This document shows, piece by piece, positions 505-41,003 of a stretch of 44,955 bases of DNA (positions are counted from its first letter, which is position 1; each line of letters begins with the position of its first letter). The notes beneath the pieces were generated by a model. The model saw only the letters and a program-made list of their open reading frames with translations, searched no databases and was not told the origin of the DNA. The translations under genes were made by a program, and so were the position numbers. This DNA is from a virus (taxonomy: Duplodnaviria > Caudoviricetes), in the IMG/VR virus record IMGVR_UViG_3300017766_003782, positions 1 through 44,955 of that record. One strand, written 5' to 3'.

Positions 505-2066
505 GACGCAATCCTGACCCTGCTCCTGTGCAGATGACTCGTGCTGAGCGAAACATCGCCTGGTGCGAGAAATACCTGCGTATCCCGGAAGGGAAGTTCG
601 TTGGGCAGCCGTTAAAGATGGCAGAGTTTATGCGGGAAGACTTCCGCGCCATCTACGACAACCCGCACACGACCCGGCGCGCAATCCTCAGTCGAGGCCG
701 GAAAAACGCGAAGACCACTGAGAGCGCCATGATCGTGGCACTTCACCTGTGCGGACCGGAAGCCAAGCCCAACTCGCAGCTCTATTCCGCTGCTCAGTCT
801 CGAGAACAGGCCGCAATCCTGTTTTCGTTGGCAGCAAAGATGATCCGGATGTCTCCCGAGCTGGCGAACGTCATCACGGTCCGAGACAGCGCCAAGCAAC
901 TCTTCTGTGCAGAGCTCGGCTCTCTGTACCGCGCTCTATCCGCCGAGGCGACGACGGCCTATGGTTTGTCGCCTGTCCTCGTTATCCACGACGAACTTGG
1001 GCAGGTAAAGGGCCCAAGATCCATGCTTTACGAAGCACTGGAGACTGCGACGGCTGCTCAAGACGAGCCGCTGTCTATCATCATCTCGACGCAGGCGCCG
1101 ACCGATGGCGACCTGCTTTCTGTGCTGATTGACGACGCGGCAACCGGCGCTGACCCGCGCACCGTGCTTCGGCTCAACACAGCAGACACTCAGCTGGATC
1201 CGTTCTCGGAGAAGGCAATCCGGCAGGCCAATCCTGCATTCGACGTGTTTATGAACCAGAAAGAAGTCCTCGCGATGGCAGAGGACGCTCGAAGGATGCC
1301 TGCTCGCCAGGCAGAGTACGAGAACCTGGTACTCAATCGTCGGGTGGATCGGAACTCGCCGTTCGTGAGTCGACTCGCCTGGCAGGCCTGCGCCAAGCCT
1401 GTGCGTGACGACTTCGTTGGGCTGCCTGTGTTTGGTGGGCTCGACCTGTCTGAAGTAAACGATTTGACGTCTTTGGTGCTGATTGCCCCAGTAAATCGGG
1501 TCTGGCAGGTACGTCCGACCTTCTGGTTGCCGGGTAACAGCTTGCACGAGAAGTCGATGCAGGACCGCGTCCCATACGACGTGTGGGAAAGCCAGGGTCA
1601 CCTGATCAAGACGCCGGGCCCGACTGTGGAGTACGAGTTCATCGCCGAGCACCTGTACGAGCTGCACATGCATCTCGACATACGCAAGATAGCATTTGAC
1701 CGGTGGAACTACCGTCATTTGCTGCCCTGGTTGTATCGGGTGGGCTTCGAAGAGGCTCAGCTCGAGGGTGACAACGCAATCTTCGTGCCTTTCGGCCAAG
1801 GCTTCCAGAGCATGAGCCCAGCGCTCAGGACTTTGGAGTCTGCCATCTTGAACGAGCAGATCGCACACGACGGGCACCCAGTCCTGGAGATGTGCGCAAT
1901 CAATTCGACGGTACACAAGGATCCAGCTGGAAACCGGAAACTGTCGAAGGTAAAGAGCCATGGCAGGATCGATGGAATGGTTGCACTCACCATGGCAATG
2001 GGTGTAGCCGGTTCTTTTGCTGAAGAAGACAAACGCGAACCTGAGTACCAGGTTCTGGTATTCTAG
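501..2066 (+). CDS. terL: Terminase large subunit
   Basis: Walker A-like GRKNAKT, Walker B VIHDELG, IISTQ coupling motif, nuclease GGLDLS and RIDGMVAL; GTG at 501 overlaps the terS stop (GTGA), start uncertain (492/501/534). Confidence 0.95.
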   Translation: MRRNPDPAPVQMTRAERNIAWCEKYLRIPEGKFVGQPLKMAEFMREDFRAIYDNPHTTRRAILSRGRKNAKTTESAMIVALHLCGPEAKPNSQLYSAAQSREQAAILFSLAAKMIRMSPELANVITVRDSAKQLFCAELGSLYRALSAEATTAYGLSPVLVIHDELGQVKGPRSMLYEALETATAAQDEPLSIIISTQAPTDGDLLSVLIDDAATGADPRTVLRLNTADTQLDPFSEKAIRQANPAFDVFMNQKEVLAMAEDARRMPARQAEYENLVLNRRVDRNSPFVSRLAWQACAKPVRDDFVGLPVFGGLDLSEVNDLTSLVLIAPVNRVWQVRPTFWLPGNSLHEKSMQDRVPYDVWESQGHLIKTPGPTVEYEFIAEHLYELHMHLDIRKIAFDRWNYRHLLPWLYRVGFEEAQLEGDNAIFVPFGQGFQSMSPALRTLESAILNEQIAHDGHPVLEMCAINSTVHKDPAGNRKLSKVKSHGRIDGMVALTMAMGVAGSFAEEDKREPEYQVLVF

Positions 2067-2076
2067 GAGACACCAG

Positions 2077-4026
2077 ATGAAGAGAGCCTACAGCATCTTG
2101 ACCGTGAAGGCCTCCGCCGACGGAGACGAGCGCGTCATCGAGGGTATCGCCTCGACCCCCACACCTGACCGCATGGGCGACATCGTCGAGCCCTCCGGTG
2201 CCAAGTTTACCCTGCCCATGCCCCTGCTCTGGCAGCATGACCACTCCAAGCCTGTGGGTTTTGTGGAGTTTGCTGAGCCGACGGAGGAAGGCATTCCCTT
2301 CCGTGCCCGTCTGGCACAGGTGGTTGAGGCGGGTCCGCTGAAGGACCGCATCGAGGAGGCCTGGCAGTCAGTCAAGGCTGGCCTCGTTCGCGGCGTCAGC
2401 ATCGGGTTCAGCCCGCTCGAATACTCCTTCCTCGACACTGGCGGGATCCGCTTCAGTGCCTGGGAATGGCTCGAACTGTCGCTGGTCACCATCCCTGCCA
2501 ACGCAGAGGCGACCATCTCGACAATCAAATCCATCGACACCAAGCTTCTGGCCGCGTCAGGCCGCAAGAAGGTGGAGTCGAAGGTGCAACCCGCCGCGCC
2601 AGGCGTCAAAACCAGTCAACCCAAGAAAGGGGTTACCACCATGAAGAAGAAAACGCTGGCGGAGCAGATTGCCGCCTTCCGCGATACGCGGGCAGAGAAA
2701 TCCGCTCGCATGCTTGAGCTGATGGAAGAGTCGGAAGGCTCGACCCTCGATGCCGCTGCTGCCGAGGAATATGACACCCTCGAGCAGGAAGTTGCTCAGA
2801 TCGACGAGCACGTGAAGCGTCTGAAGAACCTTCAGAAGTCGCAGGCCGAGAGCGCAACCCCTGTGGGCGCTGTCACCACGACCGAGGAAGGCTCGGCTGC
2901 TCGCGGCGCTCCGGTCCACGCCGTCGCCAAGATGGCCAAGCCGGCGCCGGGTATCCGCCTCGCTCGCTTCGCCAAGGCGCTGGGTCTGGCGCACAAGACG
3001 CACCGCGACGTGATGTCGGTTGCCCAGGAGCTGTATTCGCAGCGTGACCCGGACATGATCGGCATCATCAAGGCGGCTGTGGTCGGTACGTCGACCGGCA
3101 ACACCGATGCGCTGATCGGCAACGAGGGCGGCTGGGCTGACTTCGTCGAGTTCCTGCGCCCCATGACCATCCTCGGCCGCTTTGGCCAGGGCGGTATCCC
3201 GGCCCTGCGTCAGATCCCGTTCCGCGTGCCGCTGATCACGCAGACCGGTGGCGGCACGGGTTACTGGGTTGGTGAAGGCAAGGCGAAGCCGCTGACCCGC
3301 ATGACCGCTGGTCGCACCGAGCTCGCCCCGCTCAAGGTTGCCAACATCGCGGTTGCGACGATGGAAGCTCTGCGCGACAGCTCGCCCTCGGCCGAGATCC
3401 TGATCCGTGACGACCTGGCTCGTGCCCTGGTTGTGCGGATGGATACCTCGTTCATCGACCCGACCAACGCCGGCTCCGCTGGTGTCCGCCCTGCCTCGAT
3501 CACCGACGGCCTGACGGCCATCACGGCTTCGGGCAACGACGGCGCCGCGGTCCGTGAAGATGTCCGTGCGGCCATGACCACGTTCATCGCTGCCAACAAC
3601 CCGCTCTCCTCGGGTGTCTGGCTGATGTCCATGGGCACCGCCCTGGCGCTGTCGCTGATGCGCAACACGCTCGGCCAGCGCGAGTTCCCGGATATCACGA
3701 TGAACGGCGGCATCTTCGAAGGCCTGCCGGTCATCACCTCCGAGCACATCACCGACTATGTGGCCCTGGTCAACGCCCAGGACATCTGGTTCGCTGATGA
3801 TGGTGACATCGCGGTCGACCTGTCCACCGAGGCCTCGCTGGAAATGATGGACAACCCCACGGGTGACTCCATCGCTTCGACCCCTGTGGCTGCCTCGCTG
3901 GTCTCGATGTTCCAGACCAACTCGGTCGCCTTCCGGGCGGAACGGACCATCAACTGGGCTCGCCGCCGTGCTTCGGCCGTCGCGCTCATCGAGACGGTCA
4001 CCTGGGGTCTCCCCGAAGCGCCCTGA
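2077..4026 (+). CDS. Fused HK97-type prohead protease and major capsid protein
   Basis: RBS AGGAGA before ATG 2077; protease motifs LLWQHDH, GVSIGF, ELSLVTIPAN; coiled-coil delta region; capsid motifs WVGEGKAKP and FQTNSVAFRAE. Confidence 0.93.
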   Translation: MKRAYSILTVKASADGDERVIEGIASTPTPDRMGDIVEPSGAKFTLPMPLLWQHDHSKPVGFVEFAEPTEEGIPFRARLAQVVEAGPLKDRIEEAWQSVKAGLVRGVSIGFSPLEYSFLDTGGIRFSAWEWLELSLVTIPANAEATISTIKSIDTKLLAASGRKKVESKVQPAAPGVKTSQPKKGVTTMKKKTLAEQIAAFRDTRAEKSARMLELMEESEGSTLDAAAAEEYDTLEQEVAQIDEHVKRLKNLQKSQAESATPVGAVTTTEEGSAARGAPVHAVAKMAKPAPGIRLARFAKALGLAHKTHRDVMSVAQELYSQRDPDMIGIIKAAVVGTSTGNTDALIGNEGGWADFVEFLRPMTILGRFGQGGIPALRQIPFRVPLITQTGGGTGYWVGEGKAKPLTRMTAGRTELAPLKVANIAVATMEALRDSSPSAEILIRDDLARALVVRMDTSFIDPTNAGSAGVRPASITDGLTAITASGNDGAAVREDVRAAMTTFIAANNPLSSGVWLMSMGTALALSLMRNTLGQREFPDITMNGGIFEGLPVITSEHITDYVALVNAQDIWFADDGDIAVDLSTEASLEMMDNPTGDSIASTPVAASLVSMFQTNSVAFRAERTINWARRRASAVALIETVTWGLPEAP

Positions 4027-25510: not shown

Positions 25511-26447
25511 ACTCTCTCTCCTTGATGTAGTCGAAGTCGTTGCCCTGCATCTGTGCGCGGCAGAGCGGTTCGAAGTCACACCATGTGCAGTGTCGCTCGA
25601 TGTTCTTCTCCTTGACCTTTCCGTGCAGCTCGCGCATCTCAACAGCGGATGCGATAAAGTCGGAGAAGACGGCCTTGGATACTTCGGGCTTCACGGGTGT
25701 GTAGATCCTCTGGAACCACTGCTTACGGTTAGCGGCGACTGAGCGCTTATATTCCCTGTACTCACGTGGGTCAAGCGCATACTCCTTAATCGCGGCAGCC
25801 ACAGCAACCGGCAGAGTGTCGATGCTTTTCTTGCTCAGTGTGCCATCCTTGAGCAGAGCAGGTCGGCGCGGAGCCTTCGACCAGATGTAGTCCCACAGCG
25901 TGCCGTCGACTGGCTTCCAGCCCAGGATGTCCATGGCCCGGAAGTACGATACCGACTGGAGGTTGCGCCACCGGTCGTCGTCCGTCGGCTTGCGGTTGAA
26001 CGTCTTGTGCTCGACTAGCCAGCGAAGGCCATTGCCACTCTTGGCAATCGCGTCGATCTTACCGTTCCAGAGGATCCCGGGCACTATCTCAATCTCGAAG
26101 CTGTGCTCAGCTGCCTTGCCCGCCTTGCGGATGTAACGCAGGTCAGAGTCCTCCCAGTGGTTGAAGTATTCTTCCATGATGTCGGACACGTCCTGGAGCA
26201 GCTCGCCATACTGGGCCTTCTCGGCCGCAAAGAGTTTCATCTGCTTCGGGTCCAGGCTGCGCAGGACGTCGAACGGGTCGTGTCCGTTGGCGTCAGCCTC
26301 GATCATCATGTGGACGAGCGTACCGAACACCAGCGGCCGGGATTTGCGCTTCTTACGCAGCTTCTCCACATACTTGTAGTGGTACGCCTGCCGGCAGCGT
26401 CTCCAGAGCTTGACCTTGCTTTGCGATACCTTGAACAGATTGCTCAT
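25440..26447 (-). CDS. PD-(D/E)xK (RecB/Cas4-like) exonuclease
   Basis: S.SK...W.RC...Y, FGTLVH, GKID, VEHKT, Q..SY, C-terminal C..C.....C; ATGA overlap with pol. Confidence 0.88.
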   Translation of the reverse strand: MSNLFKVSQSKVKLWRRCRQAYHYKYVEKLRKKRKSRPLVFGTLVHMMIEADANGHDPFDVLRSLDPKQMKLFAAEKAQYGELLQDVSDIMEEYFNHWEDSDLRYIRKAGKAAEHSFEIEIVPGILWNGKIDAIAKSGNGLRWLVEHKTFNRKPTDDDRWRNLQSVSYFRAMDILGWKPVDGTLWDYIWSKAPRRPALLKDGTLSKKSIDTLPVAVAAAIKEYALDPREYREYKRSVAANRKQWFQRIYTPVKPEVSKAVFSDFIASAVEMRELHGKVKEKNIERHCTWCDFEPLCRAQMQGNDFDYIKEREYETSDRPEQESDAHFVAYEDIEE

Positions 26448-28909
26448 TTCTTTGCCTTCCTTGCTGCAAGCCATTTGTCGAGAGGCACACCCGCACCCCA
26501 CGGACCGATTGCCCCGTCGGCTTCGATGGGAACCTTCATGTGGATGTCGAGGGTATCCATCAGCGCGGGCCTCCGCATAATCTCCATCATCCGGTTGTAG
26601 ACGCGCTCGACCCACTCATCCTTGACCCGGAAGAGCACAGCGTCATGCACAGTCCCACAGATGCGAACCACCTTGCGCCCGAACTCTGCCCGGAGCTGGA
26701 GCGCGGCCATCAGGTTGATGTCGTTGGCGAACGACTGCACAGGCGAGTTGATAGCCTGGCGCTCAGCTGCCTTGCGGTCCATCGGGTTGTCGTCCTGGCG
26801 AGCCTCTGGCAGCCGGCGCTTGCGGCCAGACAGTGACTTGACGTAACCGTGCCGACGCACGTACCGCTTCTGCCTGTTGTGCCACTCGGGCAGGTCGGGG
26901 TAGTTGTCGAAGAAGGCATTGCGGGAACCTTCTGCTTCCTCGTCAGTGATGATGACGCCATAGCTGTCGCGGGCGTAGTCCTTGAACTTCTTCCACCACA
27001 TCCCGTAGAGGTAACCGAAGTTCACGGCCTTGGCCTTCTTGCGGTACTCCTTCCAGCGGCCGTCAATCTCGACAGCAGCATCTGGCCCCATCTTGAGCAG
27101 GGCCTCGATTGCCTCCGAGTAGCTGGGCGCCTTGCCAGTGTTGAGCCAGGTCTTGGCTGTGGCGATCACGAGCTCCTTGAGTCCGCCGCCTCGTGCAATC
27201 TCCTGGATGGCGGTCAGCCAGTGCACGTCGATGTCGTTCACGAAGGCGTGGATCATGTTGCGCTCACCCGCTAGCTCAGCAGCAACGCGAAGCTCGATCT
27301 GTGAGAGGTCGCATTCGATCAGCGTCCAGCCATCGGGCGCGGAGATAAGCGTGCGGATCCGTTTGTCGCGTGGCACCTGCTGAAGGTTCGGGTTCTCGCA
27401 TGACAGTCGGCCGGTCACCGTGCCGTGCAGCTTGAACGACGGGTGCAGGTAATAGCCGTCAGGTCTCTTGTGCAGGTAGGGCTTCCACCCGTCGATGAAG
27501 AAGCTCAGTTGCTGCTTGGCCTCGCGGAACTTGAGCAGGGCAGCTGTGCATGGATGATTGAGCCGCTTGATCACCGACTCGTTGCAGGATGGGTTGCCGG
27601 TCGCCGTGCGCTCGATCACTGGCAGCTTCAGCCGACGATAGAGAAGGTCTGCCAGCTGCTGGGTCGACCCCCAGTTGAACGCGATGGGTCGGCCGCGATT
27701 GTCGACCAGGTCCTTGGGCTCCCACTGCTTGAGGTCTGCCAGCGCGGTATCATACTGCTCGCGCAGCGCCAGCTCAGCATCCCCGAACTGATCCATGTTG
27801 ATGTACACCCCGTCGTACTCAATCTCGACGAAGAGGTTGGCCACGGGCATCAGGATGTGGTCGAAGACAGCCTTGACCTCGGGGTCAGCCTTGAGCATCT
27901 TGCCGAAGACGTAGCGGAGCTCTCGGGTATAGAACAGATCGTGTGCATGGTAACGCACGAGCTTGTCGAGCGGCTGGTGGCCCTGCTTGGTGCTCAGATC
28001 CACTTCCCAGTCGGGTGCGCCCAGGTAGACTTGCGCCAGGTACTTCAGACCGTGCCGCATGTTCTCATCCAAGAGGAAGTGTGCAAGCATGGTGTCGAAG
28101 GCCATAGGCCAGCGAACGCCGAAGTGCACCCACATCCAAAGCATGTCGAACTTGCCATTGTGCGTGATGACATTGACCTCGTGCTCAGTGATGCAGTCGG
28201 TGACCTCGTCGACCATCTCCTGGACTTGGTCGAACGACCAGGGCGACTGGTAGTGGTTGACCGGAATGATCCACTGGTTGTTGCGGGTACCGAAGCCGAT
28301 GGCCACGATGCTCGCGGGCTCGGGCACCTGGACGTCGTTGCCTGCCACACGCTTGGTGACGTGAGTCTGGAACGGGTTGAGTGAGTTGGTCTCGATGTCG
28401 AAGGATACACTGCCCCGAAGGTCGCGCAGCATCTCGCGGAAGTCCTTGCGTGTCAGGACCACACGGATCGACAATGCCTTCTCCTCGGGCACACCACCGA
28501 ACTCGACTATCTCGCCAAACAACCGGAGGTCGCCCTTGAGCACATCCTCCTGAAGCGGGTCATGCAGGATCACCGATGGGTTGTTCATCGGCAGGTAGAT
28601 CGTGTCACCCTGCTTGATGGGCTTGCCGCGCATCTTGGTGATGCCAGCAGATCCTGTGACCAGCTGCAAGGGTGAGTTCCCTACCAGCACCACGAAGTCG
28701 TAGCCTGCGAGCGTCTCAAGCAGCGGGGCAGCCTCTTTCAGCTCTGACTTGGTGATGCCTTTGCTGCTCCGGGACTCGCCGAGCAGAACTGGCAGGTGAT
28801 CCAGCTCATACTCGGCTTCCAGGACCTGGATGATGTGTCGAAGTGCAGGCTTGGTGTGAGCCTGCTTCGCGGGCTGCTCAGTGACTACCGCGATCTTAGG
28901 TTTCGACAT
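26444..28909 (-). CDS. polA: Family A DNA polymerase with 3'-5' exonuclease and N-terminal UDG-like domain
   Basis: Exo FDIET, HNGKFD; TGRLSC.NPNLQQ; motif A DLSQIELR, motif B KAVNFGYLYG, motif C VHDA; N-terminal VLVGN..L...GITKMRG..P..NPS. Confidence 0.95.
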   Translation of the reverse strand: MSKPKIAVVTEQPAKQAHTKPALRHIIQVLEAEYELDHLPVLLGESRSSKGITKSELKEAAPLLETLAGYDFVVLVGNSPLQLVTGSAGITKMRGKPIKQGDTIYLPMNNPSVILHDPLQEDVLKGDLRLFGEIVEFGGVPEEKALSIRVVLTRKDFREMLRDLRGSVSFDIETNSLNPFQTHVTKRVAGNDVQVPEPASIVAIGFGTRNNQWIIPVNHYQSPWSFDQVQEMVDEVTDCITEHEVNVITHNGKFDMLWMWVHFGVRWPMAFDTMLAHFLLDENMRHGLKYLAQVYLGAPDWEVDLSTKQGHQPLDKLVRYHAHDLFYTRELRYVFGKMLKADPEVKAVFDHILMPVANLFVEIEYDGVYINMDQFGDAELALREQYDTALADLKQWEPKDLVDNRGRPIAFNWGSTQQLADLLYRRLKLPVIERTATGNPSCNESVIKRLNHPCTAALLKFREAKQQLSFFIDGWKPYLHKRPDGYYLHPSFKLHGTVTGRLSCENPNLQQVPRDKRIRTLISAPDGWTLIECDLSQIELRVAAELAGERNMIHAFVNDIDVHWLTAIQEIARGGGLKELVIATAKTWLNTGKAPSYSEAIEALLKMGPDAAVEIDGRWKEYRKKAKAVNFGYLYGMWWKKFKDYARDSYGVIITDEEAEGSRNAFFDNYPDLPEWHNRQKRYVRRHGYVKSLSGRKRRLPEARQDDNPMDRKAAERQAINSPVQSFANDINLMAALQLRAEFGRKVVRICGTVHDAVLFRVKDEWVERVYNRMMEIMRRPALMDTLDIHMKVPIEADGAIGPWGAGVPLDKWLAARKAKK

Positions 28910-29381
28910 CGACCAACCTTCCTGTGCTCCAGTCCATCACGTAGCCAGCGGGCAGTACCCGATACACCTCGATGTGTTGACCGAAGAGGCTATCCTCCAG
29001 ATGCTCAGTGATCCGGTAGGGCGTACCGAAGAACACCCGCTTGACCCGCCCGTCTTGGAGCAGCCGGTCATAGCAGTGTGCACACGGGCTGTCGGTCACG
29101 TACATGTCAAGACCCCCGCCGATGTCTGCCGGCAGGTGTGCCAGAGCGTTCATCTCTGCGTGGATGGTCTCGCGGCAACCAGCGGCGCCCGGGCAGAGAT
29201 TGCCCGAGCAGTGAGGCAGCCCTGAGGCCACCCCGTTGTATCCGATGCTGACGATGGTCCGCTTCTGGACAATGACCGCCCCGACGTTCAGGCGCATGCA
29301 GGTGGCTCGCTTGGCAACCACCCCCGCAATCTCCATGAACATCTGCGGCCGAGTAATTCGAGCACCGAGGTTCTCAGTCAT
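28896..29381 (-). CDS. dCMP deaminase family protein
   Basis: RATC.RLNVGAVI, GYNG, HAEMNAL, PCAHC zinc motifs. Confidence 0.92.
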   Translation of the reverse strand: MTENLGARITRPQMFMEIAGVVAKRATCMRLNVGAVIVQKRTIVSIGYNGVASGLPHCSGNLCPGAAGCRETIHAEMNALAHLPADIGGGLDMYVTDSPCAHCYDRLLQDGRVKRVFFGTPYRITEHLEDSLFGQHIEVYRVLPAGYVMDWSTGRLVDVET

Positions 29382-29925
29382 GCTTCAGCTCCTTCATCAG
29401 CCGCTGGGCCCACACTGCCTGGCGGTAGGCGTCGTCGATGGCAGAGTGCTTCACGCCGATGCTGGCACCGTCGTCCTTGACGGGCATCAGTGTGTCAGCA
29501 TCCGGTACCATCGACACCAGGGTGCGAAGATCCCTGACCTGCTTGTAGGTCCAGGGCGGAGACTGATGGAAGTCGGCGTACAGCGTATCCATGATGCTGA
29601 CATCAAAGTTGCTGCCGTTGCCCCAGACCTCGATGGTCTCGTGATCCCGGTACAGGCGGCTCAGCTGGTCAAGCGCACGCTCCACGGGCACACGGTACTG
29701 ATCCTTCGTAGCAACCTCCCGACGTGCCTCCTCGTCCTGCTCAAGCCACCAGACGATGGTGTCCCAGCGGACTGTGCGACCCAACCGGATTTGCGGCTGA
29801 ACCTCGGGCAAGAGCAGCTCGCCATAGTGAACCTGCTCCAGGTCGAAGAACACCGCCCCGATGGCAGTCACGGTCGCCCGGTCACCCAGTGACAGGGTCT
29901 CCAGATCAAGCATCAACCTTTTCAC
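29374..29925 (-). CDS. DEDD 3'-5' exonuclease (Rv2179c/DUF5051-like)
   Basis: MLDLETL, IGAVFFD, TIVWW, WGNGSNFD, RDLRT, HSAIDDA; GTG start with GGAGA RBS. Confidence 0.88.
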   Translation of the reverse strand: MKRLMLDLETLSLGDRATVTAIGAVFFDLEQVHYGELLLPEVQPQIRLGRTVRWDTIVWWLEQDEEARREVATKDQYRVPVERALDQLSRLYRDHETIEVWGNGSNFDVSIMDTLYADFHQSPPWTYKQVRDLRTLVSMVPDADTLMPVKDDGASIGVKHSAIDDAYRQAVWAQRLMKELKHD

Positions 29926-30778
29926 TTCCGTCTCCCTTCTGCATGCTGATGAAGTCGTTCTTGAACATGTGCAGACTGGTGCAATGCATCGAGAGGCTGC
30001 CCAGTCGCACGTTGCGGAAGAACCCATTGATCTTGGATGCCTCCTCGATAACCCAGATGCCCAACCGGATGGTCATGTAGACGTCGTCCGCCCAGTGGCG
30101 GTAGAAGTCGCACGAGCGCATCGGATAGTAGATGTGCAGCTGGTTGTTGCGCACGATGAACTGGTAACCCAGCGTGCAGGGCTTGCGTCCGCCATCGCCA
30201 GCGCCCGTGTCCTCAGGAAAGAAGATGGGCAGATAGGCCTGGCGGGTCAGCGGTTGCTCAGCGAGCAGCTGGACCACGTCACGCAAGTCGCCGTACATCC
30301 AGCGGATCCCGTAGTTGTGGTCAGGCAGGTCCTCCAGCGCGTCGGTGTACTGCTTCACGTTCTCGTGCGGCCCGTCGACCTTGCCTGCATGACGCGGCCA
30401 GTACCGCTCCATGTAGTTGTGGTTGAACATACCCGAGTCGTCCAGGCTTTCCTGTGCCTTGTTCGACCAGGGCCAGTGCTTCCACTGAGTGCCCGGGTTA
30501 ATCGGGTAGCCGCACACTCGCTCCTCGAAGTGCTCATCCGCCCACGGGAAGTTGGGCCTGATGTCACGGCGCCAGCTCTCGAGCGTGTGGATGCCACGAA
30601 GCGGAACGATCAGGTCGACGTTGAGCAGCTCGCGCATCTCTGCCTCAGGCCTGGTCTTGATGTCCATCGCCTGCCACTTCTCGGTGTGCACCCAGTGCCC
30701 CTCGTTGATGAAGCGCTGCACGAGCTGCGTCCTGATGGCCGCAAAGCTCATGGCGTGTATCTGGTGGGCTATCTTCAT
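29906..30778 (-). CDS. Thymidylate synthase-fold enzyme, dCMP-modifying type
   Basis: TRQAY, catalytic PCT, MRSCD followed 8 residues later by Asp (RSCDFYRHWADD), SLH. Confidence 0.88.
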   Translation of the reverse strand: MKIAHQIHAMSFAAIRTQLVQRFINEGHWVHTEKWQAMDIKTRPEAEMRELLNVDLIVPLRGIHTLESWRRDIRPNFPWADEHFEERVCGYPINPGTQWKHWPWSNKAQESLDDSGMFNHNYMERYWPRHAGKVDGPHENVKQYTDALEDLPDHNYGIRWMYGDLRDVVQLLAEQPLTRQAYLPIFFPEDTGAGDGGRKPCTLGYQFIVRNNQLHIYYPMRSCDFYRHWADDVYMTIRLGIWVIEEASKINGFFRNVRLGSLSMHCTSLHMFKNDFISMQKGDGSEKVDA

Positions 30779-31578
30779 TCTTCGTCCTCCGTTTCTTCCT
30801 CGGTGATGGGATCCAGTTTATGCGAGCGCACGTAGGAAATAAGCTGCTGTCTTCTTTCTTCGGACATCAGTCTTCTCATGGCCTCGCCTGTGCGTCGCGC
30901 CTGCTTGAACTTGTAGGTGTTGTCGAACAGGAAGCGGTTGAGCCAAGCAAGCGTCGAGCGGTGGAACTGCGGGTCAGCCTGTGCGAGCTCCTCGAGGTAC
31001 TCAATCGGGTCGTCCTCCATGATGGTCAGGATCACCGACGTGTAGTTGCTGCTCACCGTAATGTTGGCGAAGTGGCAGGTCATTTCCACAGGCTTGATCA
31101 GGCTCCAGTCAAACCGCGGCAGGAGGAACCTGTCGATGTAGACCAGGTCAGCAGGAAACTTCTTGAGTATCTCAGTTGTCCGATAGAACACGTCGATCGC
31201 TGCCCCGTCGTTCGGGATGATCGTAACAGTCATGGCTTGCAGGCACGGGCCCATCGTACTCGAGCGCTTGTTCGACGTCTCGCCAGAGTGAGGCTTCAGG
31301 ATGTGGTTATAGCAACTGAACCCGACACTGCCGTAGCGCCCGCCAGCCACTCGGTCCTGCCACTGCTCGACTGCTGAGCTGAGGCTTTCCTCGTGGGTGT
31401 AGAGCTTGTTCAGCAGCGTGAGCTTGGTGTTCTTGTAACCAATCTCGAAGATGTCGATGGGGTCGTTGAACCGGCGGATCCTGAGCCGCTTGTTCCTGAT
31501 AATCTTCTTGCTGCCGCTCTTGAAGTCAGCGGGAGCCATGGTCAGTTGGCGGGCAAACTTGAGCCACTCAGTCCTCAT
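30775..31578 (-). CDS. Divergent second thymidylate synthase-fold protein
   Basis: GPCLQ...DVFYRTTEILKKFPADL keeps the PC..RSxD-x7-D spacing; ATGA-coupled to the TS gene. Confidence 0.6.
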   Translation of the reverse strand: MRTEWLKFARQLTMAPADFKSGSKKIIRNKRLRIRRFNDPIDIFEIGYKNTKLTLLNKLYTHEESLSSAVEQWQDRVAGGRYGSVGFSCYNHILKPHSGETSNKRSSTMGPCLQAMTVTIIPNDGAAIDVFYRTTEILKKFPADLVYIDRFLLPRFDWSLIKPVEMTCHFANITVSSNYTSVILTIMEDDPIEYLEELAQADPQFHRSTLAWLNRFLFDNTYKFKQARRTGEAMRRLMSEERRQQLISYVRSHKLDPITEEETEDEE

Positions 31579-32221
31579 GTTTGCGCACCGACATCCAGTT
31601 CACTTCGACCAGGTCCTTGTGGTCGGGCGGTTCCCATCCTGCTGGCTTGACCACGTCCTGGGCGTACCCGCGCTTCGAGTCGGCGGCAGACTGTGCGAGG
31701 ACCTTCGCCATGTTCGCACGATGCACGCGGTGCCAGGCCTCGACAAACACGTGATCCAGGCCGTGGAGGTGCACAGTGCCGAACAGCACATAGGCCAGGT
31801 CGACCATCGCATCCAGCTGCTCAGCGAGGTGGTGAGTCAGCTCAGCCCGGTCGGGCGCGAAGTCCTCGGTCAGTATGTGGATCATTTGCTGATGGTGCAG
31901 CGCCCACTCTGCCAGCTCCTCGCCGAGGAACTTCAAGCGGAACTTGAAGATGTCCTCCGGCAGCATCCGAGGCGGGCCCTTGTAGTCGATCCCGAACTTG
32001 CTGTGAAACAGCTGGATGTCCTTGATGGGGTCGAACGGTTTCTGGTAGTACTCGTCGCCCACCTTCTCGAAGCGGCCATCAAAGAACTCCTCCTTGGGCC
32101 GCACCCAGACCTGGCCACCCTGGCCTCGGTAGATGACGACGGGTTTCAGGTCTGCCTCATTGCAGCCCTCAGCGAGCAGCTCGTATAGCCCGCCCTTGCG
32201 ATGCCGATAGATGTCACCCAC
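31568..32221 (-). CDS. DUF1653-like domain fused to MazG-like (PRA-PH/DR2231-type) dNTP pyrophosphatase
   Basis: N-terminal YRHRKGGLY...VVIYR....VWVRP..EF; C-terminal EELAE, DAMVDLAYV, VHRANMAK, KPAGW.PPD. Confidence 0.85.
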   Translation of the reverse strand: MGDIYRHRKGGLYELLAEGCNEADLKPVVIYRGQGGQVWVRPKEEFFDGRFEKVGDEYYQKPFDPIKDIQLFHSKFGIDYKGPPRMLPEDIFKFRLKFLGEELAEWALHHQQMIHILTEDFAPDRAELTHHLAEQLDAMVDLAYVLFGTVHLHGLDHVFVEAWHRVHRANMAKVLAQSAADSKRGYAQDVVKPAGWEPPDHKDLVEVNWMSVRKHED

Positions 32222-32714
32222 GGTTGAGAACTCCTCTCGCTATTTTGATGATGTGGTCGATGTCGTCGGTCGTGTGGTTGCGCCAGTCATAGAAGACGTG
32301 CGCGCGCTGGTATGCCCAGTCGTCGTACGCCTCGCAGATCTTGGTGTGGTTCTCAGCGAGCAGGCGCAGGTGCTGCGGAGTGTCGTGCTCGTTGGTTTCA
32401 TGGTTGTCGAGCGGTCCGCCCTTGCAGTAGATGAACAGGCTCGGCAGTTGGTAGAAGGTCCACAGCTGCACAGCAGGCAGGGGCGGGGCCTTAGAGAACC
32501 GGCTGTATATCGGATGGCTGACTGCCGGGTGCCGGTCGAGGATGGTGTTCTCGTGATTGTGCCTTTGGATATACGAAGCGACCCGCTCCTGTATTTCGCC
32601 CGGGTACTTCTCTGGTCCCCTGCCCCGTTCGACGCTCAACCCGAGCGCTTCAGCGATTGTGCGGGCTAGGGTCGATTTGCCGGATCCATCCGGTCCTTCG
32701 AGGATAATTCTCAT
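32214..32714 (-). CDS. dNMP kinase (thymidylate-kinase-like P-loop)
   Basis: IILEGPDGSGKSTLA P-loop; LDR....S..IY. Confidence 0.85.
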   Translation of the reverse strand: MRIILEGPDGSGKSTLARTIAEALGLSVERGRGPEKYPGEIQERVASYIQRHNHENTILDRHPAVSHPIYSRFSKAPPLPAVQLWTFYQLPSLFIYCKGGPLDNHETNEHDTPQHLRLLAENHTKICEAYDDWAYQRAHVFYDWRNHTTDDIDHIIKIARGVLNRG

Positions 32715-35414: not shown

Positions 35415-35630
35415 CTATCGCTCCGAAAGATTTTTCTTGGGGCCCAAGTTGAAGCGCTCGAGGATGGTTCCCTTGCTGCGACTGAACTTGATGTTCTCGC
35501 GCTCGATGCGGAGGACCAGGTAGTCGGAGGCCATGGCCACAATCTCCCAATCCTTCTTGGCATAGTGCGGCTTGATGCGGGTGTGGGCGGCCTCGGGGAG
35601 AAGCCGCTTGAGTTCCATTGCGCTGCCCAT
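35415..35630 (-). CDS. Hypothetical protein
   Basis: TAATG coupling with the upstream gene. Confidence 0.6.
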   Translation of the reverse strand: MGSAMELKRLLPEAAHTRIKPHYAKKDWEIVAMASDYLVLRIERENIKFSRSKGTILERFNLGPKKNLSER

Positions 35631-36304
35631 TAGCGGACCACCTTGTGCAGGTCGACCTGGTCGCCAGCGACACGCCCGGCGATGACCGCTTCGTGGGACT
35701 TGAGCTTGGGGCCATTGTAGGCTTTGCCCGCTTTGACCTTGCCATCCAGGTACTCAGCAATCTCATTCTGGAGCTGCTCGCGGTGGTTGAAGATCACCAG
35801 GTCGGTGCCAGTGCTGGTGGGCGCCGAGTCGACCAGGTCGTGGCAGCGCTCCCAGACCCGATTGGCAGCGATGTACTTGAACTCCTTGCGCCAGCGGGCG
35901 CGCTCCTTCTGCGTCAGCCCCTTGGGCAGGGCTGCACGGTACAGCTGGTCGATCTGCAGCATCAGGTAGGCGGTGGTGTCCTGGGCCGCTTGCAGATTGT
36001 CGCTCCGGCCGACGAAGAGGAAGAAGGTCTGCTTGGTGTGGTCGGTCCGCATGAGCGGCTTGACCGCGTAGAGATGCGCCGCGGCCTGTGCACAGACGAG
36101 CTGCCAGCGATGGTCAAAGGCGTGGTCGTTGCCCGTGATGACTTCGGGCCGCTCAGACTTGGGCCGCAGCGCGTCCTGGTCGATGCCGTGCTTCATCATC
36201 AATTTGTGAGCGAGCTTGAGCGCCTGCTCGGACTCGTTGTCGTTGGCCTGTCCTTCGGCCATAGCGAGCAGGTTGCGGATCTTGTCGTGGATGGAGTCGG
36301 TCAT
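35630..36304 (-). CDS. DUF2786 family protein
   Basis: KIRNLLAMAE.....ESEQALKLAHKLMMKHGID N-terminus; RBS GAGGAAGGA. Confidence 0.8.
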   Translation of the reverse strand: MTDSIHDKIRNLLAMAEGQANDNESEQALKLAHKLMMKHGIDQDALRPKSERPEVITGNDHAFDHRWQLVCAQAAAHLYAVKPLMRTDHTKQTFFLFVGRSDNLQAAQDTTAYLMLQIDQLYRAALPKGLTQKERARWRKEFKYIAANRVWERCHDLVDSAPTSTGTDLVIFNHREQLQNEIAEYLDGKVKAGKAYNGPKLKSHEAVIAGRVAGDQVDLHKVVR

Positions 36305-40514: not shown

Positions 40515-41003
40515 TCAGTTACCGCCGAGGACGAAAGACATGCCCAGCGCCCAGGCAGTGTCGCCAGAGCTGCTGTGGGCAACCACGGCGTAGATGTCTG
40601 CACGGTCGCTGATGCCGTAGCGCAGCCCCATGGCAACCGAGTCGACCGAGGACTGACCTGCCAGAGCAATCGCGCCGGTCAGCTGCTTGGCTTCAGGTGT
40701 GCGGGTCTGGAGGAAGGCCCAAGTAGCGCCATCGGTACCATCGCGGCCGTCGCGGCCATCAGCGCCGTTGAGACCGTCGATACCGGGTGCGCCGTCGAGG
40801 CCAGGAGCGCCATCAGCGCCAGGGGCACCATCTTGACCGGCAGGGCCTTGAGGGCCAGCAGGACCAGCGGGGCCGGTCGGACCAGGCGGGCCTTGCAGGT
40901 CGCAGAACACAGCGTTCCCACGGGAGCAGGGCTTTTCAGTGGCGAAGGAGGAGTGCGCCATCAGAGCGGAGACGATGACGACGGAAGTGAAAAGAAGTTT
41001 CAT
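40515..41003 (-). CDS. Signal peptide, collagen-like repeat and YadA-like anchor protein
   Basis: Sec signal; 19 uninterrupted Gly-X-Y triplets; C-terminal four amphipathic strands ending ALGMSFVL. Confidence 0.75.

Follow-up and report, generated by a model that had tools for sequence, protein, structure and literature searches.

The locus

The 44,955 bp phage record IMGVR_UViG_3300017766_003782 (G000; 59.7% GC), taken at its whole length and called the window, has the genes for terminase, capsid, portal, and tail proteins on its plus strand. The minus strand features an overlapping run of genes for a deoxynucleoside monophosphate (dNMP) kinase, a pyrophosphatase, the proteins B and A, an exonuclease, a deaminase, and the DNA polymerase PolA. 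B and A are the subject of this analysis. Both are of the thymidylate synthase (TS) fold, and their sequences argue for a two-enzyme cytosine-modification cassette that is real, widespread, and uncharacterised—with a fair chance of new chemistry. Current annotation of the cassette in cultured phages reads "thymine synthesis" plus a hypothetical protein. The pair comprises the following features:

30775..31578, minus strand: gene B, a 267-residue minimal TS-fold protein (open reading frame (ORF), alignment, AF2 model)
29906..30778, minus strand: gene A, a 290-residue TS homologue of the deoxycytidine monophosphate (dCMP) type (PHROG 160, E 5e-25; PDB profile matches; AF2 pLDDT 94)
30775..30778, minus strand: ATGA overlap of the B stop and the A start (sequence; tcat on the plus strand)

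A GGAGG lies 7 nt 5' of the ATG of A. The original prediction, made from the sequence alone, had described two tandem TS-fold paralogues, and both ORFs are found at these coordinates with the motifs it quoted, the same R-x10-D spacing, and the ATGA coupling. The roles of the TS residues R126/R127, R166, E58, W83, H207, and Y209 are used here as general background. Escherichia coli TS numbering for W80, Y94, L143, C146, H147, D169, G173, and N177 follows PMC13326640 (in part).

Gene B features a reduced TS fold with a remodelled site

The AF2 model of B has a pLDDT of 91.4. Foldseek returns 275 PDB matches for it at E ≤ 0.001, which belong to the TS superfamily throughout, among the matches listed; the best one is AfhB (9iqu, E 5.9e-6). 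As judged by VIA, B aligns to AfhB 9iqu with Z 13.4 (root-mean-square deviation 4.0, 181 residues aligned), to MilA with 12.5, and to canonical TS with about 11. The Atlas model of B reaches TM 0.54–0.65 to PF00303 clusters, and BFVD places an uncharacterised PMBT14 protein on top, followed by TS-family proteins. The prediction that B is TS-like is thus borne out by the structure model, with Foldseek and VIA both pointing to the TS superfamily. A TS match for B is found neither by Pfam—for B and all 76 members of its alignment—nor by PDB sequence and profile searches, so B is invisible to sequence annotation.

The motifs of B are P111-C112, R133-T-T-E136, and D144. In an alignment of 76 rows with 18–41% identity to the B of the window, K52, Y60, C112, R133, E136, and D144 are invariant (76/76). 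C112, R133, and D144 are also kept in 10 of 10 distant B rows, and this Cys, Arg, and Asp are unvaried down to 11% identity. Together with Tyr60 they are retained in Muddy gp47, KimJongPhill gp77, Azira gp44, Triscuit gp64, and Clostridium CP3. Because these residues are kept both in the alignment and in the distant phage members, B is likely catalytically active.

The surroundings of these residues are remodelled. The small folate-binding domain is absent from the model, in which the helices 50–60 and 63–79 adjoin, and a helical extension is formed at the C terminus (approximately 189–252). The pair of trans arginines is absent as well: Arg occurs at position 83 in 2/76 rows and at position 84 in none, these positions being mostly G/T/S and S, respectively; R76, nearby and present in 71/76, might be a substitute. 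The G173 position is occupied by Lys or Arg (residue 140) in 76/76. Position 174, aligned with H270 of A, carries Thr in 52/76, Tyr in 17/76, and His in 2/76; we take this column to be that of the His binding the 3'-OH in TS. The loss of the final His claimed for B holds insofar as T174 aligns with H270, but 50 of the 76 homologues have a His two residues further on (Ser176 in the B of the window), so the alignment register at position 174 is not fully certain. In addition, B is basic: its median isoelectric point (pI) is 9.2 compared with 6.3 for A, the pI exceeds 8 in 66/76 B but only 3/76 A proteins, and of the two partners B is the more basic one in 71 of 76 pairs. A canonical ThyA would have Asn177 and Gly173, where B has D144 and K/R140 (76/76 each), and the D169N of the AfhB type corresponds to E136 (76/76). 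Alignment and secondary structure together suggest that B is an enzyme with its catalysis kept that no longer uses the usual folate and 5'-monophosphate/3'-OH clamps.

Gene A features a complete TS fold with an unusual pocket

The model of A (AF2 pLDDT 94) is a complete TS fold including the small domain, an insert of about 75 residues. The VIA matches are AfhB (Z 19.6), MilA (19.4), T4 gp42 (1b49; 18.9), and canonical TS (about 19). With the small domain (W99, W102, Y122) and one trans arginine (Arg179) retained, A is plausibly able to homodimerise. The motifs are R179-Q180, R198-x-P-C201 (with P200-C201), R221-S-C-D224, H228, D232, and H270. Among 100 non-redundant rows, Q36, E50, R87, Y122, R125, R179, Q180, R198, C201, R221, D224, H228, D232, and H270 are without exception. 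The Cys and specificity Asp predicted for both proteins are hence fixed in A (C201/D232, 100/100) as in B (C112/D144, 76/76), and the predicted change from RSxD to RTTE is seen as R221-S-C-D224 of A against R133-T-T-E136 of B.

D232 takes the N177 position in 100/100 rows, and since Asp at this position predicts a cytosine substrate (PMC8670742, in part), the same is predicted for A. D169N is the signature of the 5-hydroxylases of the TS superfamily (PMC13326640, in part), and D224 (100/100) excludes it for A. The L143 position carries Arg198 in 100/100, not the acidic residue of the gp42/MilA type, and the G173 position carries His228 in 100/100, not the Gly of the folate motif. This position is Gly in MilA, Xp12 TS, and L. 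casei TS and Val in AfhB. In ThyA, the L143 and G173 positions each lie within 6 Å of C5 (PMC13326640, in part). With His228 at a site where folate-using homologues have Gly, the cofactor of A is uncertain. A thus differs from a canonical ThyA (Asn177 plus the Gly173 folate motif) by D232 and H228 in all 100 rows, and from a gp42/MilA-type dCMP hydroxymethylase, with which it shares the Asp at N177, by the acidic residue at L143. A Thr or Ser after the Cys and the missing dihydrofolate reductase (DHFR) lead to 5-hydroxymethyl-dCMP as a working guess for the product; a DHFR homologue is found in none of the A/B loci with the DHFR of Xp12 as the only query.

Relationship and arrangement of A and B

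A and B are very distant. Pairwise BLAST yields no match (best E 0.36), and hhalign with close homologues only yields no signal; with deeper alignments, hhalign reaches E 5e-4, with the PC and RTTE/RSCD motifs brought into register. The pairwise identities of A and of B are weakly correlated (Spearman 0.25, uncorrected for kinship). Among the fetched loci no A–B fusion occurs. B lies more than 600 nt from A in 7/84 pairs and can be 1–2 kb apart.

The cassette and its distribution

The further members of the cassette in the window are:

32214..32714, minus strand: dNMP (thymidylate-kinase-like) kinase (PHROG 761, E 2e-16)
31568..32221, minus strand: DUF1653 plus PRA-PH/MazG-type nucleoside triphosphate (NTP) pyrophosphohydrolase, likely a dCTPase; overlaps the B start by 11 nt
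29374..29916, minus strand: Rv2179c-like 3'-5' exonuclease (PF16473, E 3e-37)
28896..29381, minus strand: dCMP/dCTP-type deaminase (PF00383, E 1e-19)
26444..28909, minus strand: family A DNA polymerase PolA, end of the cassette (PF00476, PF01612)

A Pfam scan of the 38 larger ORFs of the window detects no glycosyltransferase, carbamoyltransferase, DHFR, or second TS. From proteobacterial phages to Muddy, Gordonia CT, and Clostridium phages, the genes follow the order kinase, pyrophosphatase, B, A, (deaminase), PolA. The deaminase is found in 81/85 B-bearing loci, and the exonuclease is a variable member (14/100 loci). The genes recurring in B-bearing loci are replication and nucleotide genes only. 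The pyrophosphatase has different fusion partners: DUF1653 in the window (31568–32221, minus strand) and the dNMP kinase in L041 (4138–5094); some loci have a dUTPase_2-type enzyme in its place. The PolA of one relative (L039, 2904–5447) has an N-terminal uracil-DNA glycosylase (UDG) domain (PF03167, E 6e-20). The corresponding stretch of approximately 150 residues in the PolA of the window (26444–28909, minus strand) is without a Pfam match and is possibly a decayed UDG.

Clustered homologues number 272–373 for B and 3,301 for A. The cassette is carried by the Brevundimonas phage Strzyga, a Desulfofustis phage, Yersinia P744, Muddy, Streptomyces KimJongPhill, Gordonia Azira, Microbacterium Triscuit, and Clostridium CP3, and also by Gordonia CT cluster phages. 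The B-slot genes of these phages match the B profile with E 1e-7 to 2.5e-31 in a 10-sequence search or with E ≤ 1e-21. Triscuit features three TS-fold genes in a row (L184, 3000–6077): B (gp64), A (gp66), and a canonical ThyA (gp67), and the A/B pair is therefore not its source of dTMP.

B was never seen without A: all 56 contigs fetched by B have A, which lies within the locus in 55 of them and, in one circular contig, across its ends. The reverse does not hold. A itself fetched 302 loci, and among the best 80 of these, B is present in 62, a contig end intervenes in 2, and B is missing in 16 (15 non-redundant), five of the B-less records being 92–100% complete genomes. In a quick IQ-TREE tree of 100 A rows (SH-aLRT only, midpoint-rooted), the B-less A proteins are nested among the B-bearing ones and imply at least three changes on well-supported branches. 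The invariant catalytic positions of A are identical with B (85 rows) and without B (15 rows). A does not need B everywhere, and what the prediction had named as evidence against itself, A homologues commonly occurring and functioning without B, is in part what is seen: 16/80 A loci at no fewer than three places of the tree with an unchanged active site. One B-less A cassette (L014, 4380–5096) adjoins ThyX, a separate thymidylate source.

A C5-methyltransferase-like gene in place of B

A C5-cytosine-methyltransferase (MTase)-like gene of PF00145 (E 1e-15 to 1e-19) is present in 13 of the 15 non-redundant B-less A loci and in none of the flanks of B-bearing loci. Eleven of these 13 also carry an asparagine-synthetase-like gene and many an N4/N6-MTase-like gene. 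In L031 (4875–5996), the MTase-like gene is alone in the slot of B, between pyrophosphatase and A. Loci fetched by the MTase-like gene itself have an A-type gene in 34/38 cases and B in 0/38; 13 of these 38 contigs were already among the earlier loci, and A is present in 21 of the 25 new ones. Conversely, 44 B-bearing genomes picked for length from the fetched loci, 36 of them near-complete, contain an MTase-like match in one case, a distant one, and in none of the near-complete genomes. The MTase-like proteins feature a PEC motif, a Lys in motif X (6/7), and a pI above 8 (6/7).

The cassettes with the MTase-like gene (L031, L025, L065, L057, L033, L143–L180) often include an N4/N6-MTase-like gene and an amidotransferase resembling asparagine synthetase. 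In L033, L167, and L173, the C5-like and N4/N6-like MTases form one fused gene, and L154 and L160 have the C5-like gene in duplicate. L034 and L078, with neither partner in the flank of A, represent natural controls for A alone. In L034 (136–2764), a DHH-family protein lies upstream and a DNA ligase downstream of A.

Comparison with known systems

The dCMP hydroxymethylase gp42 of the T4 pathway and MilA share with A the TS fold (Z 18.9 and 19.4), the Asp at N177, and the Thr/Ser after the Cys, and the accessory genes of the T4 pathway—dCTPase, dNMP kinase, and deaminase—are also present in the cassette of the window. In contrast, gp42 and MilA have Asp/Glu at L143 and Gly at G173, where A has Arg and His. 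Unlike the T4 pathway, the cassette of the window is without a glucosyltransferase, and its second enzyme is of the TS fold.

AfhB of phage HY126 (PDB 9iqu/9iqc), RB69 gp48, and DLP3 gp80 are flavin-dependent 5-hydroxy-dCMP synthases (PMC13326640, in part). AfhB is the top structural match of B (Z 13.4) and, tied with others, of A (Z 19.6), and has a non-Gly residue at G173. However, the D169N signature of this type is replaced by Asp224 in A and Glu136 in B, and neither an arabinosyl- nor another glycosyltransferase is found in the cassette of the window.

Xp12 has a dCMP methylase and a deaminase selective for 5-methylcytosine (5mC) (10.1101/2024.12.05.627091, in part); here, too, a dCMP-type TS homologue stands beside a deaminase, and either cassette could supply both modified C and T. 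The Xp12 enzyme has about 24% identity to A along part of its length, retains the folate-motif Gly, and works in an E. coli assay without a second TS-fold gene (same preprint, in part). It lies beside a DHFR, and the combination of a TS-like Gly173 motif and a linked DHFR is not seen in A/B. Xp12-type 5mC as the whole story is a weak fit—with no Gly173 motif, no homologue of the Xp12 DHFR, and a distant deaminase.

Enzymes of the C5-MTase fold, namely, eM.SssI acting on 5-hydroxymethylcytosine (5hmC) (PMC7176277, in part) and CmoX/CmoY (PMC12783734, in part), share the activation of cytosine C5 by a Cys at C6, and it is a protein of this fold that takes the place of B in related phages. B itself is of the TS fold and not the Rossmann fold. 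CmoA was not noticed in these cassettes, although no search was aimed at it.

Thymine hypermodification of the SP-15 type was considered because of the UDG-fused PolA in some relatives (PMC13697223, in part). It is rejected as a model, as the SP-15 synthases are of the ThyX type (PMC5977210, in part), and SP-15 is absent among the A matches listed (best 60 of 122 and 60 of 283 records).

A and B fit no ThyA-, gp42-, AfhB-, or Xp12-type membership. By analogy, the cassette is likened to the nucleotide-level cytosine replacement systems of T4, Xp12, and AfhB and may act as they do. In the Gordonia phages it was annotated as thymine synthesis with B unmentioned (PMC10353413). The MetaGPA preprint (10.1101/2024.12.05.627091, in part) ties neighbourhoods of TS, PRA-PH, deaminase, and PolA to contigs with modified C and reports two of seven tested TS homologues without 5-methyldeoxycytidine output. 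A description of the A/B pair was not found in a literature search that covered subscription journals thinly, so an earlier one is possible.

A proposed two-step model of cytosine modification

The cassette likely replaces cytosine in the phage DNA. The original prediction had offered either a 1:1 heterodimer or a second enzyme converting the product of the first; the latter fits best, and an obligate heterodimer is weakened by the 16/80 A loci lacking B. In the preferred reading, held at about even confidence, A gives dCMP a modification at C5, and the second step falls to B as a separate enzyme whose substrate is possibly DNA. A, as its own homodimer, would convert dCMP to a 5-substituted dCMP—5-hydroxymethyl being the working guess—which the kinase would phosphorylate while the pyrophosphatase clears dCTP, PolA incorporates the analogue, and the deaminase supplies the dT pool. 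In B, Asp144 would read the cytosine ring and Cys112 would add to C6 of the already modified cytosine. B would then expel the C5 hydroxyl via an exocyclic methylene and capture a nucleophile supplied by the host, so that the C5 group is exchanged or extended, possibly once the base has been built into DNA. Relatives without B would rely on the MTase-fold protein for this job, and A would be a constant first enzyme with an exchangeable second module.

TS-fold and C5-MTase-fold enzymes both add a Cys at C6 and thereby activate C5. An engineered C5-MTase (eM.SssI) couples thiols to 5hmC in DNA (PMC7176277, in part), and dehydroxymethylation is also noted (PMC11347137, in part). The lack of mononucleotide clamps in B together with its basic surface suggests DNA as the substrate; the TS-superfamily enzymes treated in the cited papers all act on mononucleotides. 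A wider proposal, rather tentative, is that B has moved away from the nucleotide pool to act on cytosine in DNA, converges on the job of the C5-MTase fold, and builds with A an undescribed hypermodified cytosine in hundreds of phages, Muddy and the Gordonia CT cluster among them. That the base may be something other than simple 5mC or 5hmC, as originally suggested, is a reasonable inference.

Several observations weigh against the two-step model. E136 and K140 are not kept in the B of distant actinophage (and Clostridium) members. The VIA scores of A (Z 18.9–19.6) leave AfhB, MilA, T4 gp42, and TS unseparated, and no characterised homologue compared matches its Arg at L143 plus His at G173. 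A gene supplying a nucleophile or transferring a sugar or carbamoyl group was not found to recur in B cassettes. The mutual exclusion of B and the MTase-like gene shows one shared pathway slot and does not imply identical chemistry; moreover, G045 has a divergent B and a distant MTase-like gene approximately 35 kb apart, and in L034 and L078 the flank of A contains neither B nor an MTase-like gene. B and A are often tightly spaced, with a gap of at most 30 nt in 54/84 pairs and the exact ATGA in 34/84 (first-start ORF calls); other cassette genes in the window overlap likewise. The missing trans arginines and basic charge of B would also fit a heterodimer with a mildly acidic A lending Arg179. 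Finally, the same literature search, thin for subscription journals, found no measured modified base for these phages.

Such an A:B heterodimer with asymmetric sites, in which A gives Arg179 to the site of B and B completes or tunes that of A to form one nucleotide-level product, seems improbable. TS enzymes are established dimers with trans arginines; B lacks this pair where A keeps Arg179, is the more basic protein in 71/76 pairs, is never without A (56/56 contigs), and is ATGA-coupled to it in 34/84 pairs. Yet the catalytic positions of A are unchanged without B at three or more independent places of the tree, and the replacement of B has an unrelated fold that is unable to complete a TS dimer. 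The occasional distance of 1–2 kb (7/84 pairs beyond 600 nt), the weak identity correlation, and the lack of fusions among the fetched loci speak against it as well.

A comparably small probability is given to a reversed or parallel order at the nucleotide level, with B or the MTase-like protein acting first on dCMP/dCTP and A then converting the product. Arg198 and His228 would grip an anionic C5 group, and the deaminase may convert some of the product to a thymine analogue. The basic residues beside C5 in A (the invariant Arg at L143 and His at G173, both within 6 Å of C5 in ThyA; PMC13326640, in part), in B (Lys/Arg140, 76/76), and in the MTase-like proteins hint at such a group. These MTase-like proteins, with a motif X Lys (6/7) and often an amidotransferase, recall carboxymethyl-C chemistry (PMC12783734, in part), and deaminases selective for 5-methyl-dCTP supply dTTP in Xp12-like phages (10.1101/2024.12.05.627091, in part). 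However, it is A that keeps the small domain and the dNMP clamp (R179, R221, S222, H270), as an enzyme taking dCMP would, and B that lost both. Two of the B-less loci contain A without either partner in the flank, and the deaminase of the window is distant from that of Xp12 (E 8e-8). That B is a non-catalytic, TS-derived accessory protein—a nucleotide or DNA binder, a regulator, or a protector of modified DNA—would agree with its basic charge and its lost folate apparatus and trans arginines but is very unlikely given a Cys, Arg, and Asp invariant down to 11% identity and its replacement by another enzyme fold with a catalytic Cys motif.

A conserved second TS-fold enzyme with a remodelled site that is exchanged for an MTase fold in relatives points to undescribed cytosine chemistry. 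The two-step model is directly testable, since the cassette is intact in phages cultured on harmless hosts: Muddy (a therapeutic mycobacteriophage), Gordonia Azira, Microbacterium Triscuit, and Brevundimonas Strzyga. A new base, if true, would bear on the evasion of restriction and CRISPR, on phage engineering, and on enzymes for labelling modified C.

Further features of the window

On the plus strand, a single ORF (2017–4026) located 5' of the portal gene combines a prohead protease (Peptidase_S78) with the major capsid protein. The minus strand carries a DUF2786/DUF7168 protein (35630–36304), which recurs in nine related loci, and a small protein that has collagen repeats and weakly matches the YadA anchor (40515–41003). 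The usage of 4-mer palindromes across the window is uninformative; CTAG is depleted with an observed/expected ratio of 0.38, the remaining 4-mer palindromes ranging from 0.78 to 1.33.

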